Assembly (NCBI RefSeq): GCF_000011325.1
Contig: NC_003450.3
Span: forward strand, 990,001-1,022,000
Reading direction: 5' to 3'
Length of the DNA stretch: 32,000 nt
Source: Corynebacterium glutamicum ATCC 13032
Lineage (GTDB): Bacteria > Actinomycetota > Actinomycetes > Mycobacteriales > Mycobacteriaceae
A program made the translations under genes and the position numbers. The notes beneath the pieces were generated by a model, which worked only from the letters and a program-made list of their open reading frames with translations, was not told the origin of the DNA and did not search any database. This document shows, piece after piece, positions 16,866 to 28,325 of the stretch (position 1 is the stretch's first letter; each line of letters starts with the position of its first letter).

Positions 16866-16997
16866 GAACCAAACTTCCTTTGTGTGAGGTGTATTCAGAG
16901 GGCCAGCCCCAAAATACATTGACCAGTAGTGCTTCACATCACACTATAAAACAGTTAGAAGCACCTAAACAGTTTTTCCGATAACTGTTGTCATTTT

Positions 16998-18155
16998 GTG
17001 ACCGCCTGGCTTTGTAGTTTTCCCTCCGGTGTCCAAGATGAATATGACATGATGAATGGCGTGGTACAGCCTCAGGAACATCTCGATGCAACGTTGATTG
17101 CTGCAGACTTCCACGGCAACCCCGAAAACTCTGGTGACCGCAAAGAGCGCCTGAATTTTCAAGGTTGGAAGTATGCCCTTAATCGCACGGTCAGGGATGT
17201 TTTTCCAGATGGCCTGCTCGATTTGGCGGCCTTGTTGACGTTCTTTTCCATTCTGTCGATCGCCCCTGCAGTGCTGCTGGGCTATTCGGTGATCACGATT
17301 TTTCTGGCCAGTGACTCCACCGAAATCCTCAACCTTGTCCGCGATGAGGTAAATCAGTACGTTCCGGAAGATCAATCCCATGTTGTCAACGGCGTGATTG
17401 ATTCGATCGCAGGCTCGGCAGCTGCAGGTCAGGTCGGTGTCGCGGTCGGTGTGATCACGGCATTGTGGACATCTTCGGCATATGTGCGCGCTTTTTCCAG
17501 ATGTGCCAACGCTGTTTATGGCCGAAGCGAAGGCCGCACATTGATCAAACGCTGGGCAATGCTGCTTTTCCTCAACCTTGCGTTGCTGCTTGGAATCATC
17601 ATCATTTTGGTCTCCTGGGTGCTCAACGAGACCTTGGTGATGGGAATTTTCGCCCCCATCGCGGAACCACTTCATCTCACGAATGTGCTCAGCTTCCTCA
17701 CGGACCGGTTCATGCCGATCTGGATCTGGGTGCGGTTCCCAGTGATTGTGGGGGTGCTCATCATGTTCGTGGCCACGCTGTATTACTGGGCCCCGAACGC
17801 CCGCCCGTGGAAGTTTCGCTGGCTCAGCCTCGGATCATTCTTGGCGATCGTTGGCATCCTGCTCGCAGGCGTGGGCTTGAATTTCTACTTCACGCTGTTC
17901 GCCGCTTTTAGTTCCTACGGCGCGGTGGGTTCGCTGCTCGCGGTTTTTATTGCGCTGTGGGTGTTCAACATTTGCTTAATCATCGGCCTGAAAATCGACG
18001 TGGAGATCAGCCGCGCCAAGCAACTGCAGGCAGGAATGCCGGCGGAGGATTACAGTTTAGTGCCACCACGCTCTATCGAGAAGGTGGCGAAAATGAAGCA
18101 GCGCCAGCAGCGCTTGATGGATCAGGCTGCGGCGATCCGGGAGGAAAGCAATTAA
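16998..18155 (+). CDS. YihY/BrkB family membrane protein (formerly called ribonuclease BN-like)
   Basis: Pattern DGLLDLAALLTFFSILSIAPAVL, about 6 TM segments, and a basic/acidic C-terminal tail. The start is uncertain: GTG 16998 or ATG 17049. Confidence 0.8.
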   Translation: MTAWLCSFPSGVQDEYDMMNGVVQPQEHLDATLIAADFHGNPENSGDRKERLNFQGWKYALNRTVRDVFPDGLLDLAALLTFFSILSIAPAVLLGYSVITIFLASDSTEILNLVRDEVNQYVPEDQSHVVNGVIDSIAGSAAAGQVGVAVGVITALWTSSAYVRAFSRCANAVYGRSEGRTLIKRWAMLLFLNLALLLGIIIILVSWVLNETLVMGIFAPIAEPLHLTNVLSFLTDRFMPIWIWVRFPVIVGVLIMFVATLYYWAPNARPWKFRWLSLGSFLAIVGILLAGVGLNFYFTLFAAFSSYGAVGSLLAVFIALWVFNICLIIGLKIDVEISRAKQLQAGMPAEDYSLVPPRSIEKVAKMKQRQQRLMDQAAAIREESN

Positions 18156-25057: not shown

Positions 25058-25065
25058 GAGCGTTT
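25058..25065. repeat. 8-bp target-site duplication gagcgttt (left copy)
   Basis: Immediately precedes the IS terminal inverted repeat. The identical 8-mer immediately follows the 44-bp IS remnant at 27234-27241. Confidence 0.75.
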
Positions 25066-25906
25066 GGTGCTGTTGCAACTTGGGGCGGGAGCCAAGAAGG
25101 CTCCGTTTTTATTGTGTGATCAACGCTATGTGCCTGTGTTGTCAGGCCGTCTCGAATACCCGGCTAACAATCACTGCATCCGGATTCGGGTGACCATAGG
25201 CAAACATCGTGCCCTGCCCCTTCCGCAATGAGTGCATCGCCTCCATCCCTTTCAACGTCCGGTAGGCAGACGTTCGGTTTTTGAATGCGCCTTTCGGCCC
25301 CAGGATCCGCTTTAACCGACCATGGTCGCCTTCAATGACGTTGTTGAGGTATTTCACCCGACGATGCTCGACCGTCGATGGACAGACGCCTTCCGCCTTC
25401 AGCTCAGAGATTGCCCTGGCGAGTGAGGGGGCCTTGTCGGTGCTGATCACCCGCGGATAGCCTGCCGATTTATTCGACCGCAGCGTCTTCGCCAGGAAAC
25501 GCTTCGCCGCCGCGACGTTTCTCTTCGGGGAGAGGTAGAAGTCCAGGGTCTGGCTACCGGCGGTGATTGCCCGATAGAGGTAGCACCACTTTCCCCCGAC
25601 CCGGATATAGGTCTCATCCACCCGCCAGGACCTGGCCTGCCAGTCAGGAACTTGCCGATACCACCGGGTCTTCTTATCCAGCTCAGGAGCATATTTCTGG
25701 ACCCAGCGGTAGATCGTGGTGTGATCGACCGGCACTCCCCGCTCGGTCATCATCTCTTCGAGGTCGCGATAGCTCACGCCGTAGCGGCAGTACCACCGCA
25801 CCGCCCACAGGATGATTTCACGAGGGAACTGCCGACCGGAGAAGATGCCCATGGACCTGATTATTCCACGCCGGTCTTCCTACTGCCCCAACTTTGCAAC
25901 AGCACC
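25066..25906 (-). mobile_element. IS6-family insertion sequence (841 bp)
   Basis: Terminal inverted repeats ggtgctgttgcaacttgggg (25066-) and, in reverse complement at 25906, ggtgctgttgcaaagttgggg. The first 13 bp are identical and resemble the IS26-type GGCACTGTTGCAAA end. A single DDE transposase ORF fills the element. Confidence 0.9.
25142..25852 (-). CDS. IS6-family DDE transposase
   Basis: 236 aa. ILWAVRWYCRYGVSYRDLEEMMTERGVPVDHTTIYRWVQKYAPE is closely similar to IS26/IS6100-type transposases. DDE residues lie in WRVDETY, ISTDKAP and NNVIEGDHGRLK. Confidence 0.93.
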   Translation of the reverse strand: MGIFSGRQFPREIILWAVRWYCRYGVSYRDLEEMMTERGVPVDHTTIYRWVQKYAPELDKKTRWYRQVPDWQARSWRVDETYIRVGGKWCYLYRAITAGSQTLDFYLSPKRNVAAAKRFLAKTLRSNKSAGYPRVISTDKAPSLARAISELKAEGVCPSTVEHRRVKYLNNVIEGDHGRLKRILGPKGAFKNRTSAYRTLKGMEAMHSLRKGQGTMFAYGHPNPDAVIVSRVFETA

Positions 25907-26563
25907 GTTTTAGGTTATCCTGCAGGTGACCCTGAACTCCAAGATGATGGTTGGTATAGACAAGCCTTTGCAGATGGTTTCTTGCATGGAAAACAACTGA
26001 GTACATTTTTTCCCGCATGGGACGAGTTTGCATGGGACGATTCCGCTGGTGGCGAACCGGGGGTACTAATGTCAAGGCAGGCGGCGAACTATGATAAAGG
26101 ACCAGCTGGTGGAAATAAATACACTGATCAGGTCGTTCTTGAAACTGAGGATATGTGTGGCAATGAAATAATCCTCCGTAGAGGGTGGTACAACTCGGAT
26201 GCCTCCAGAAAAGATAAGCCGTGGGGGTACGATAAAATTCGGCACAAACATGGTGTTTTTAGTTTGTGGTCAGTTAGTATAGTATTTGAAAATTCGTGTA
26301 TCAACAGGATTGAAGGTACACAGCAGGTTTATGAAGAAGAAGTTTATCAAGTGAAATGTGATCGACTCTTCTTAAATTGTGAACAAACCGGGCAGTCTTT
26401 TGTATATCGCGGTATTTATGAAAGAAATATATATAAGCCTGGTGCTACAGAGCCACTTGGTTTGAGGACATTTTTTCCTGTACACAATGAGGGAACGCAT
26501 GGTTCAAGTGATGTAACCCCAACATGGTTTAGTACAGACATTCCAACATTGGACTTATGGTAA
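25907..26563 (+). CDS. hypothetical protein, 5' end abuts the IS (probably truncated; possible restart at ATG 26069)
   Basis: The frame is open from the IS boundary. The part of the ORF-track ORF at 25652-25906 is antisense read-through of the transposase gene. The region is AT-rich. The sequence contains GWYNSDASRKDKPWGYDKIRHKHG. No family recognised. Confidence 0.5.
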   Translation, partial: VLGYPAGDPELQDDGWYRQAFADGFLHGKQLSTFFPAWDEFAWDDSAGGEPGVLMSRQAANYDKGPAGGNKYTDQVVLETEDMCGNEIILRRGWYNSDASRKDKPWGYDKIRHKHGVFSLWSVSIVFENSCINRIEGTQQVYEEEVYQVKCDRLFLNCEQTGQSFVYRGIYERNIYKPGATEPLGLRTFFPVHNEGTHGSSDVTPTWFSTDIPTLDLW

Positions 26564-27021
26564 TGACGTACAAAGCAGATTATGATCTTGACTTGGAAAA
26601 AGTAGTTTTTCGTATGTCGCAGCTGTTCGAGGATCTTATTCCGTCAGAAAACGCTTTTGATTATTATGACAAGTCAACGTGGCCTACCCTGACTATGGCT
26701 GCGACATGGGTTCAGGATGATTGTCTCCTTATTGTTTTTAGGGTTGAGGAAAGCAGAGGTGAGACGTTCGTGGGTTATTTTTCTCGGATCTCGCCTCGAT
26801 ATAATCCCGACAACATCGAATTTGGTGCAGTAGAGCTAATGTATGCTGACTCAATTGCAGGTGATTGGTTTATAGAGAAGGTCGATCTGAAAGCTCCGCA
26901 AAAGATACATTGGAGAAATACCCACCATAGCCTCAATACTCCGGCGGATATAGAAGAATTATTGGACTATGCTAATGAGATACCAATGTGGTTGAGTCCA
27001 GACCTTGAGAAGTGGATGTGA
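26557..27021 (+). CDS. small acidic hypothetical protein (154 aa), translationally coupled to the preceding ORF
   Basis: Its ATG overlaps the upstream stop (ATGGTAA). By my count it has about 28 D+E versus about 13 K+R. No signal peptide or TM segment. A terminator follows. Confidence 0.6.
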   Translation: MVMTYKADYDLDLEKVVFRMSQLFEDLIPSENAFDYYDKSTWPTLTMAATWVQDDCLLIVFRVEESRGETFVGYFSRISPRYNPDNIEFGAVELMYADSIAGDWFIEKVDLKAPQKIHWRNTHHSLNTPADIEELLDYANEIPMWLSPDLEKWM

Positions 27022-27080: not shown

Positions 27081-27124
27081 CTGAACGTAGTAGCCTCCTT
27101 GAGATTGTATTTAAGGAGGCTATT
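27081..27124 (+). terminator. rho-independent terminator after the cargo gene pair
   Basis: A 10-bp stem tagcctcctt / aaggaggcta with a 12-nt loop, followed by ttgtgttttttc. A second hairpin, gtctccgact/agtcggagac, lies at 27132-27158. Confidence 0.7.
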
Positions 27125-27189
27125 GTGTTTTTTCGGTAAAGGTCTCCGACTGAGCTATAGTCGGAGACTATTTCAATATCACCCCAGAG

Positions 27190-27233
27190 GGTGCTGTTGC
27201 AACTTGGCTCCCGCCCCAAGTTGCAACAGCACC
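27190..27233. mobile_element. 44-bp collapsed IS6 copy (terminal inverted repeats only, perfect 18-bp-arm palindrome)
   Basis: Sequence ggtgctgttgcaacttggctcccgccccaagttgcaacagcacc. Bases 27203-27233 are an exact reverse complement of IS bases 25066-25096 (31/31). The first 13 bp equal the shared IR core. Confidence 0.85.
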
Positions 27234-27241
27234 GAGCGTTT
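27234..27241. repeat. 8-bp target-site duplication gagcgttt (right copy)
   Basis: Identical to 25058-25065 and directly abuts the outer end of the IS remnant. Confidence 0.75.
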
Positions 27242-27270: not shown

Positions 27271-27870
27271 TTAGAGCCATTTGAAATAGATGATCATTTC
27301 ACCGCAGTATCTGGTGTCTTGATCAGTCCACACCTCGACCAAATCTTGTGAGTCGTCGTCATTTTCTGGTCGGTTAATAAAAATCTCTGCGGAGAAATCT
27401 CCATCCTCCTTAATATGTTCTGGAGTAAAATAGAATTTGCTAACGATTTCTCTATTCTGAAATTTCGTGATGCGGTTTCTAATATCGGCTGACCAAAGAC
27501 CATCCACATAGGAAACCAAGAAGTCGGGGCCACTTTCCGGATCGAAGCCCTTCGACCAGACCGTCACAGTCGCGTCAATGCCATGTTCAGTTTCTGTGAA
27601 ATGTTGTTTATGCACGTCCGGTTGTGGAAAGAGGCTTTTCTTGATCAAGCGTTCATTCCATCCCAGTTTGATGTTTTTCACAAAGGCATCAGTATCGATA
27701 TCAGTGAGGTCGTAGAATTTTTCTTCGTGAACAGCAGTGATATCCTTCGCGACGTCTCTAAGCTGCAAACGTGCAATCATTAATGGCACCTCTAGCGTGA
27801 GGTTTTGCTCGTCGATCCACTCCTGAATGCACACCTCTACAGCAAGGACTCTGTCAAACTTGTCAGTCAT
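27271..27870 (-). CDS. acidic cytoplasmic hypothetical protein (199 aa)
   Basis: ATG with RBS aagga about 9 nt upstream. AT-rich, D/E-rich, with no TM segment or signal peptide. No family recognised. Confidence 0.6.
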   Translation of the reverse strand: MTDKFDRVLAVEVCIQEWIDEQNLTLEVPLMIARLQLRDVAKDITAVHEEKFYDLTDIDTDAFVKNIKLGWNERLIKKSLFPQPDVHKQHFTETEHGIDATVTVWSKGFDPESGPDFLVSYVDGLWSADIRNRITKFQNREIVSKFYFTPEHIKEDGDFSAEIFINRPENDDDSQDLVEVWTDQDTRYCGEMIIYFKWL

Positions 27871-28244: not shown

Positions 28245-28253
28245 TTCTACTTG

Positions 28254-28325
28254 CTTCCCCACCAGGACTCGAACCTAGAATGACGGTACCAAAAACCGTA
28301 GTGTTGCCGATTACACCATGGGGAA
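28254..28325 (-). tRNA. tRNA-Gln (anticodon UUG)
   Basis: Manual cloverleaf: acceptor TTCCCCA/TGGGGAA (U1:A72), D arm GTGT..ACAC, anticodon arm ACGGT-TTTTGGT-ACCGT, T arm CTAGG-TTCGAGT-CCTGG, discriminator G. CCA is not encoded. 72 nt. Confidence 0.9.

Follow-up and report, generated by a model that had tools for sequence, protein, structure and literature searches.

Two overlapping genes of Corynebacterium glutamicum ATCC 13032, cg1095 and cg1096, were analyzed within a 32,000-nucleotide stretch of the genome (contig NC_003450.3, positions 990,001 to 1,022,000 of the forward strand), which is called the window here and to which all coordinates refer unless another locus is named. The first open reading frame (ORF), ORF1 or cg1095 (25907..26563, + strand), is a 5'-truncated candidate toxin gene of 218 codons with a TAA stop at 26561-26563. 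The second, ORF2 or cg1096 (26557..27021, + strand), is a candidate immunity gene coding for an acidic protein of 154 residues when read from the ATG at 26557. Both lie in a mobile unit formed by the insertion sequence (IS) IS1628. We consider it quite probable that this cargo is an orphaned polymorphic-toxin cassette, consisting of a C-terminal toxin domain and its immunity gene.

The frame of ORF1 contains the peptide RRGWYNSDASRKDKPWGYDKIRHKHG and offers two possible restart codons, TTG 25982 (193 residues) and ATG 26069 (164 residues). In databases cgp_1095 is a 'hypothetical protein' of 164, 193 or 303 residues depending on the start chosen. The frame is open for a further 85 codons backwards into the IS (25652-26563), antisense to the transposase gene. 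Several annotations list fusion 'proteins' of 249-303 residues because the frame stays open through the IS end, and these entries are most likely an annotation artefact. Residues 2-30 of ORF1 (LGYPAGDPELQDDGWYRQAFADGFLHG; 25910..25996, + strand) are the remnant of an LGFP-type repeat. In alignments they correspond to the half LGFP repeat standing ahead of the domain in two homologs, P0011 (541 residues, aligned from residue 340) and P0012 (422 residues, aligned at 213-240), and in both proteins the aligned region comes directly after LGFP repeats defined by Pfam; the remnant also matches the repeat units of protein P0029 eight times. The alignments show that IS1628 cut the candidate toxin gene within its last LGFP repeat, removing the signal peptide and the repeats. 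Since the start of ORF1 falls inside the last LGFP repeat of the homologs, approximately 210-340 N-terminal residues have been lost, and a search of the rest of the window for the missing 5' end found neither LGFP nor toxin sequence. The candidate toxin domain itself, about 150 residues at 26099..26551 (+ strand; alignments A3, A4 and A6), is complete. Its conserved positions comprise a D, LRRG(W/Y)Y, G-x-DK, (K/R)H, two Cys, G..T..P and a W, and every position that is invariant or nearly invariant in the family is intact in ORF1.

The 154-residue form of ORF2 is cgp_1096 (Q8NRT2), annotated 'hypothetical protein'. It has a calculated pI of 4.37 (28 Asp and Glu vs 13 Lys and Arg) and lacks hydrophobic segments (the Kyte-Doolittle value, taken over 19 residues, peaks at 1.16); neither a signal peptide nor a membrane segment was found in it. 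The second ATG, at 26563, is the likelier start because all homologs begin there. It gives a protein of 152 residues beginning MTYKADY, with a TAATG overlap between the genes at the ORF1 stop. Many C. glutamicum genomes encode a protein identical to the 152-residue form, and close homologs (65-99% identity) are present in several Corynebacterium species. Homologs of ORF1 and of ORF2 were found at E values of 1e-36 to 1e-99, so neither is a chance ORF. The pair is followed by a terminator-like hairpin and T run at 27084-27139 (+ strand), with a 20-pair stem that includes G-T pairs and the tail TTTTCGG. Microarray data show that both genes are transcribed in ATCC 13032, the cg1095 transcript being up at pH 9 and that of cg1096 up with sigA overexpression (PMC2807442, PMC5678898).

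IS1628, an IS6-family element of 842 bp (25066..25907, - strand; Pfam DDE_Tnp_IS240, E value 2.8e-44), occurs once in the window and is 99.9% identical over its 842 bp to the copies on C. glutamicum plasmids. Its transposase gene lies at 25142-25852 (- strand) and its imperfect terminal inverted repeats at 25066-25085 and 25887-25906. On the far side of the gene pair, the unit is closed by a 44-bp remnant of an IS1628 end (27190..27233), in which two left-end repeats stand head to head. The remnant is palindromic, with parts of 18 and 31 nucleotides that have CTTGG in common; the 31 nucleotides are identical to the left end of IS1628, inverted. It may have originated from a second IS copy by internal deletion or from resolution of a hairpin. 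Directly outside the two ends are copies of the 8-bp sequence GAGCGTTT (25058-25065 and 27234-27241), read directly from the sequence as a target-site duplication. Insertion of IS6-family elements produces a target duplication of 8 bp. All features of an IS6-family mobile unit are thus present, namely the DDE_Tnp_IS240 transposase, the terminal inverted repeats and the 8-bp duplication, and the position of the duplication outside both ends indicates that the IS, 1.28 kb of cargo and the solo end (2,168 bp together) were inserted as a single unit. The G+C content is 42.8% for the cargo and 58.6% for the IS, vs 55.0% for the whole window.

An initial annotation made from the letters of this DNA had spoken of transposon cargo, which proved a fair description of a 2,168-bp unit flanked by GAGCGTTT. 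Its account of the cargo was also accurate: the first ORF is cut by the IS (218 codons and the stop remain), the second encodes a strongly acidic cytoplasmic protein of 154 residues, a terminator follows the pair and the composition is AT-rich. The ATGGTAA overlap that it reported is real, with the second ATG as the likelier start.

Relatives of ORF1 numbered four in a word-indexed search, 24 in an exhaustive phmmer search and at least 150 with a profile built from 13 diverse members. In every homolog longer than the domain (exhaustive search), the domain is C-terminal, for example at residues 340-536 of 541 in P0011, 213-419 of 422 in P0012, 320-456 of 467 in P0016 and 371-482 of 504 in P0025. 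Ahead of it stand four or more kinds of module that are unrelated to each other. In the Corynebacterium-type proteins P0011 and P0012, a signal peptide and a linker are combined with three or four LGFP repeats (Pfam LGFP, E values 1e-41 and 1e-51), and three more homologs with a signal peptide and LGFP repeats were recovered by a genome scan. Examples of strains with an intact LGFP version are Corynebacterium sp. NML130628 and C. striatum ATCC 6940 (loci L020 and L023). P0025 carries an Rhs-associated core domain (TIGR03696, E value 3.6e-11, 43.4 bits vs a cut-off of 32.5) that ends at residue 361, and the ORF1-type domain begins near residue 371. PE and PPE/EspB-like regions precede the domain in P0016, and many Mycobacterium homologs have DUF4226 or EspA/E-like N termini, with a W-x-G motif in the family consensus. 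A signal peptide alone precedes it in proteins of Rothia, Actinocorallia and Nocardia brasiliensis and in two Kofleriaceae proteins. On p1-JPH1, a plasmid of M. avium, the two genes carry the annotations 'DUF4226 domain-containing protein' and 'hypothetical protein' (WP_198001560.1 and WP_232060686.1), and a 'type VII secretion target' comes next. The DUF4226-type N terminus of this plasmid protein recurs on a C40-annotated peptidase of another plasmid (NZ_CP020813.1, M. dioxanotrophicus, 48078-48539), which suggests that the module carries several different C-terminal effectors.

The domain is regularly accompanied by a relative of ORF2. Among 45 loci that a motif-seeded scan retrieved from one-genome-per-species reference contigs, 31 have an ORF2-family gene directly beside the toxin-domain gene, overlapping it or within about 50 bp; the ORF calls use the earliest possible starts, so the overlaps are approximate. 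Partners were detected with a hidden Markov model (HMM) seeded only with Corynebacterium ORF2 sequences and iterated over every ORF in the retrieved loci, a small set for iteration, on which it converged at 51-52 ORFs. The paired loci include members of Mycobacterium, Mycolicibacterium, Nocardia and Williamsia, and four further loci obtained by protein look-up (L003, L014, L016 and L018) also have an ORF2-family neighbor. Four of the 14 unpaired loci end at a contig edge. In five others, from Rothia, Actinocorallia and Pseudonocardiaceae, small ORFs adjacent to the toxin gene are the best sub-threshold hits (E values 0.2-1.3). These ORFs, located in Rothia nasimurium (L056 and L062, 3433-3840), Actinocorallia (L044 and L048, 3521-3865) and L063 (4490-4939), stand beside toxin homologs having only a signal peptide and share the ORF2-type motifs A-W...V-F and I-x-W-x-G; they probably belong to the immunity family as remote relatives. 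Distant ORF2-like genes (23-31% identity) are found beside Corynebacterium toxin genes in three further arrangements: abutting the toxin gene on the same strand (L016), convergent and 30 bp downstream of it (L003, L014, L021 and L024) and divergent at its 5' end (L019). A profile comparison by hhalign of the Corynebacterium ORF2 family (alignment A8) with the family of Mycobacterium neighbors (A7) gave an E value of 9e-5 (probability 59%, 114 columns), lining up the shared motifs A-W...V-F/Y and I-x-W.

ORF2 relatives are also found alone. Highly similar stand-alone genes occupy at least three housekeeping loci, next to genes for an aldehyde dehydrogenase and rplO, for glmM and rpsI, and for a sigma factor and fhaA. 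Upstream of the orphan gene in C. suranareeae, about 60 nucleotides still resemble the last toxin codons; loci L001 and L002 retain such a remnant of the toxin 3' end. A search of the surroundings of the orphan genes for IS1628 ends or other DNA in common found none. In C. diphtheriae (L003), a toxin end with its partner is 98.9% identical to the LGFP-toxin locus L014, and the identity starts exactly at the border between the LGFP and toxin parts.

The C. diphtheriae locus (CP074413.1, 7251-13428) is sdp-like, with an SdpI-like ORF of 87 residues and SdpB- and SdpA-like genes. The N-terminal part of an SdpC (TIGR04032 positions 3-105) runs into the toxin-end ORF in a different frame, and a second SdpC, which is split, is also there. 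The toxin-end/immunity cassette appears to have recombined in behind the 5' part of sdpC. Membership of ORF1 in the SdpC family was considered and rejected: neither ORF1 nor its C. diphtheriae relative P0002 matches TIGR04032, and only the ORF upstream of P0002, in another reading frame, does so. The immunity protein of SdpC/SdpI is of the membrane type, whereas ORF2 is soluble, and the link to sdp is a recombination junction in L003.

The state of these copies bears on whether the two ORFs are simply decaying, functionless pseudogene debris in a unit of which only the IS matters. ORF1 is certainly truncated, and several of its relatives in Corynebacterium carry frameshifts or survive as fragments (L003, L016, L019 and L021; in L003, L019 and L021 these are truncated or frameshifted toxin copies). 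However, ORF1 has no internal stops and has lost no conserved residue, and ORF2 is intact and exists as a complete stand-alone gene of 65-90% identity in other species. We regard debris as a very remote explanation.

The same comparisons bear on another explanation, in which the ORF1 domain is a secreted but non-toxic envelope enzyme or a host-directed effector and ORF2 serves it in the cytoplasm as a chaperone or export adaptor. The proteins typically built on LGFP repeats (Pfam PF08310) are envelope enzymes. Dedicated small partners are often needed by mycobacterial substrates of the type VII (ESX) secretion systems, and a 'type VII secretion target' gene does come after the pair on the M. 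avium plasmid. However, the partner accompanies the C-terminal domain across Sec/LGFP, ESX-type and signal-peptide-only routes, and ORF2 persists alone in genomes and loci that lack the domain, which would be senseless for a chaperone. In P0025 the domain sits directly after an Rhs core domain, a placement that we know only for toxins. An enzyme or effector with its chaperone thus seems rather improbable to us.

A C-terminal domain on unrelated modules, an adjacent ORF2-family gene and orphan ORF2 genes are together the signature of polymorphic toxins along with their immunity proteins; the C-terminal position, the varied trafficking modules, the adjacent partner and the orphans and relics are all present in the sequence data. 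In the intact relatives, the domain of about 150 residues would be the warhead at the C terminus of an exported protein. Delivery would proceed by a Sec signal peptide and LGFP cell-envelope repeats in Corynebacterium, by ESX (type VII) substrate-like N termini in Mycobacterium and Nocardia and elsewhere by an Rhs core, and the acidic cytoplasmic protein of the ORF2 family would protect the producer, presumably by binding the domain. In the window, IS1628 has truncated the candidate toxin gene, leaving its remainder with the candidate immunity gene and the terminator between the IS and the solo IS end. As judged from sequence, cg1096 probably continues to give protection when competing corynebacteria deliver toxins of this family. 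The intact domain of cg1095, deprived of export, may be silent, may serve as a spare part for recombination or may be weakly made and neutralized by cg1096.

Such a layout had been proposed in the initial annotation, and it is supported by the C-terminal domain on exported modules, the ORF2-family neighbor in 31 of 45 loci and the orphan genes. The annotation had also called for full-length homologs with secretion or trafficking N termini, and these turned up with LGFP repeats, an Rhs core, type VII regions or a signal peptide. Homology to a housekeeping or metabolic family, which it had named as counter-evidence, was found for neither protein in scans of Pfam, NCBIfam and related collections. 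Its statement that neither family is recognizable likewise held for Pfam, NCBIfam, PHROGs, PADLOC, PDB sequences and a Foldseek search with the toxin model. Scans of ORF1, ORF2 and ORF3 with the first four of these collections gave nothing. No Pfam match was obtained for 13 diverse members of the toxin domain even at an E value of 10, Pfam gave nothing meaningful for 27 members of the ORF2 family, and profile searches of PDB sequences with the toxin alignment and both immunity alignments yielded no hits.

Several points weigh against reading cg1095-cg1096 as an orphaned toxin/immunity cassette. The word 'toxin' is drawn from architecture and gene context only, and LGFP repeats are found on ordinary cell-envelope enzymes as well. 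The toxin domain has no match to any Pfam or NCBIfam toxin family, and Foldseek searches of PDB and BFVD with its model found no significant neighbor, the best hits having E values of 0.16 (PDB) and 0.03 (BFVD, an uncharacterized phage protein). The AlphaFold2 model of ORF2, from an alignment of seven sequences, was unusable (pLDDT 44) and was left out of the fold search. The scan that retrieved the 45 loci was seeded with the motif G[WYF]DK..H, and the sampling of loci is therefore not free of bias. It was by HMM iteration on a small set of ORFs that the Corynebacterium and Mycobacterium partners were first linked; the profile link between A8 and A7 is moderate by itself and convincing only in combination with the conserved position. 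Finally, no promoter-like site was found on the + strand upstream of the gene pair.

For the toxin domain, AlphaFold2 with an alignment of 59 sequences gave a model graded fair (pLDDT 76, pTM 0.72), in which a beta hairpin leads into a pair of helices, then four long antiparallel strands and finally a short helix (bb-aa-bbbb-a). The partner is predicted to be cytoplasmic, and the target of the domain would therefore be cytoplasmic as well. As a tentative guess at the level of motifs, the domain might be a metal-independent ribonuclease (RNase) acting in the target cytoplasm. RNases of the BECR fold such as Ntox41 are listed with the signature [RK]H, [KR], [ST]xxP (Table 2 of PMC3482391). In our model, the conserved (K/R)H is predicted to end the first helix and the conserved T-x-x-P to lie in the last strand, and the predicted order of two helices and a four-stranded antiparallel sheet appears compatible with that fold. 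The domain gave no sequence, profile or structure match to RNases of this fold, and the likeness is no more than a lead at the level of motifs; comparing the toxin profile with RelE and barnase by hhalign returned a probability of 0.1%. It is also conceivable, though we would not count on it, that the domain is a toxin with a fold and an activity new to solved structures and that its mycobacterial versions, which are fused to PE/PPE, EspB-like or DUF4226 regions, are plasmid-borne in some cases and each have an ORF2-type partner, are ESX-exported antibacterial effectors.

Polymorphic toxins such as Rhs, CdiA, WapA and LXG proteins are described as C-terminal warheads swapped between unrelated delivery modules, with the cognate gene adjacent (Zhang et al. 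2012, PMC3482391). That survey also describes stand-alone immunity genes, 5'-truncated toxin ends, mobile elements and low G+C content (PMC3482391). Domain swapping, the adjacent small gene, orphans, a 5'-truncated end, a mobile element and low G+C content are all shared by the system described here. It differs from the catalogued toxins in that both families are without a match among Pfam or NCBIfam families, and delivery by Sec and LGFP repeats, as in the Corynebacterium versions, is not mentioned in the main text of the survey (PMC3482391). A further difference is that here it was an IS6-family element that cut the gene, and that the cassette travels inside an IS-bounded unit.

For the intact Corynebacterium LGFP versions, the best functional analogy is WapA/WapI of Bacillus subtilis. 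WapA is Sec-exported and wall-associated, with YD/Rhs repeats and a C-terminal tRNase toxin, and WapI is the cytoplasmic immunity protein encoded downstream. The wall-binding part is here made of LGFP repeats rather than YD/Rhs repeats, and no sequence relationship was found. Among actinobacteria, M. tuberculosis exports CpnT, whose C-terminal toxin TNT acts on host cells as an NAD+ glycohydrolase; the immunity factor IFT is cytoplasmic and encoded next to it. The layout is alike, but no similarity was detected, the profile search of PDB sequences being without any hit.

The ABP systems of gram-positives, including Corynebacterium, consist of a protease (AbpP), a toxin (AbpT) and AbpI, the immunity protein. 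The toxin is reported to be Sec-secreted, to end in a BECR RNase domain, to have its immunity gene downstream, to carry a BetaH N-terminal domain and to be always accompanied by a serine protease; the S. aureus locus is S8-Ntox35 (PMC12582261, PMC13460014). In L014, a trypsin-like serine protease gene (93-995, - strand) is divergent from the intact LGFP toxin gene and adjoins it, which resembles the ABP arrangement. The window differs in having no protease, and no BetaH domain was seen. The protease was rejected as a conserved ABP-type partner, since an ORF2-like gene occupies the same position in L019.

The gene order around the unit is gamma-glutamyltranspeptidase, an Excalibur-domain protein, the IS, ORF1 and ORF2, cg1097, tRNA-Gln (28253-28325), a TetR regulator and mfd. 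Nine other C. glutamicum genomes share this order of neighboring genes, and their sequence from the IS to cg1097 (2.8 kb) departs from that of the window by at most three substitutions. Neither an empty insertion site nor an informative polymorphism was found in these genomes, all nine of which have the unit. A further explanation is that the pair now serves as an addiction module similar to toxin-antitoxin systems, stabilizing the IS1628 unit, with a truncated cytoplasmic toxin made from TTG 25982 or ATG 26069 and kept under control by cg1096. No conserved residue is missing from the complete toxin domain, the TAATG overlap would couple translation of the two genes, both mRNAs were detected and the unit is identical or nearly so in the nine genomes. 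However, near-identity of the strains reflects recent common ancestry and is uninformative on selection, neither restart codon is preceded by a recognizable promoter or a strong ribosome-binding site, and ORF2 has no DNA-binding or other known domain in the Pfam and related scans. The relatives of ORF1 are exported multidomain proteins, unlike classical toxin-antitoxin toxins; these exported relatives and the lack of a DNA-binding domain in ORF2 speak against a classical type II module. An addiction module we judge unlikely, and we prefer the orphaned polymorphic-toxin cassette.

Just beyond the IS1628 unit, in a stretch of 45% G+C near tRNA-Gln, is cg1097 (cgp_1097, 27271-27870, - strand), a very acidic 'hypothetical protein' of 199 residues with a pI of 4.55 and without a match in Pfam, NCBIfam, PHROGs or PADLOC scans. 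It could be another immunity-type gene or an island remnant. Elsewhere in the window, an ORF of 236 residues (16965-17675, - strand) equals the IS1628 transposase in length and is overlapped by a long antisense ORF (16998-18155). It was rejected as a second IS copy because BLASTP similarity to the transposase is absent.

In the literature, we found neither family described; mentions of cg1095 and cg1096 are confined to expression tables, where they are hypothetical proteins. Systems of this kind are well known, but both protein families and the LGFP scaffold appear to be undescribed. The candidate toxin and immunity families are unnamed in Pfam, NCBIfam and PDB and are common in Corynebacterium, Mycobacterium, Nocardia and their relatives. 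The combination of Sec export with LGFP repeats would be an addition to the delivery scaffolds of polymorphic toxins, and LGFP-anchored proteins would then be contact-dependent weapons in corynebacteria. Mycobacterial proteins that resemble ESX substrates and have an immunity partner are a hint of antibacterial type VII secretion in Actinomycetota, and, if the proposal is correct, they would provide a toxin/immunity pair for testing a role of mycobacterial ESX systems in interbacterial competition. The capture and movement of a toxin-end/immunity cassette by an IS6-family element would be one route by which immunity genes spread. For C. glutamicum ATCC 13032, an industrial model strain, the proposal gives two 'hypothetical' genes a testable function.

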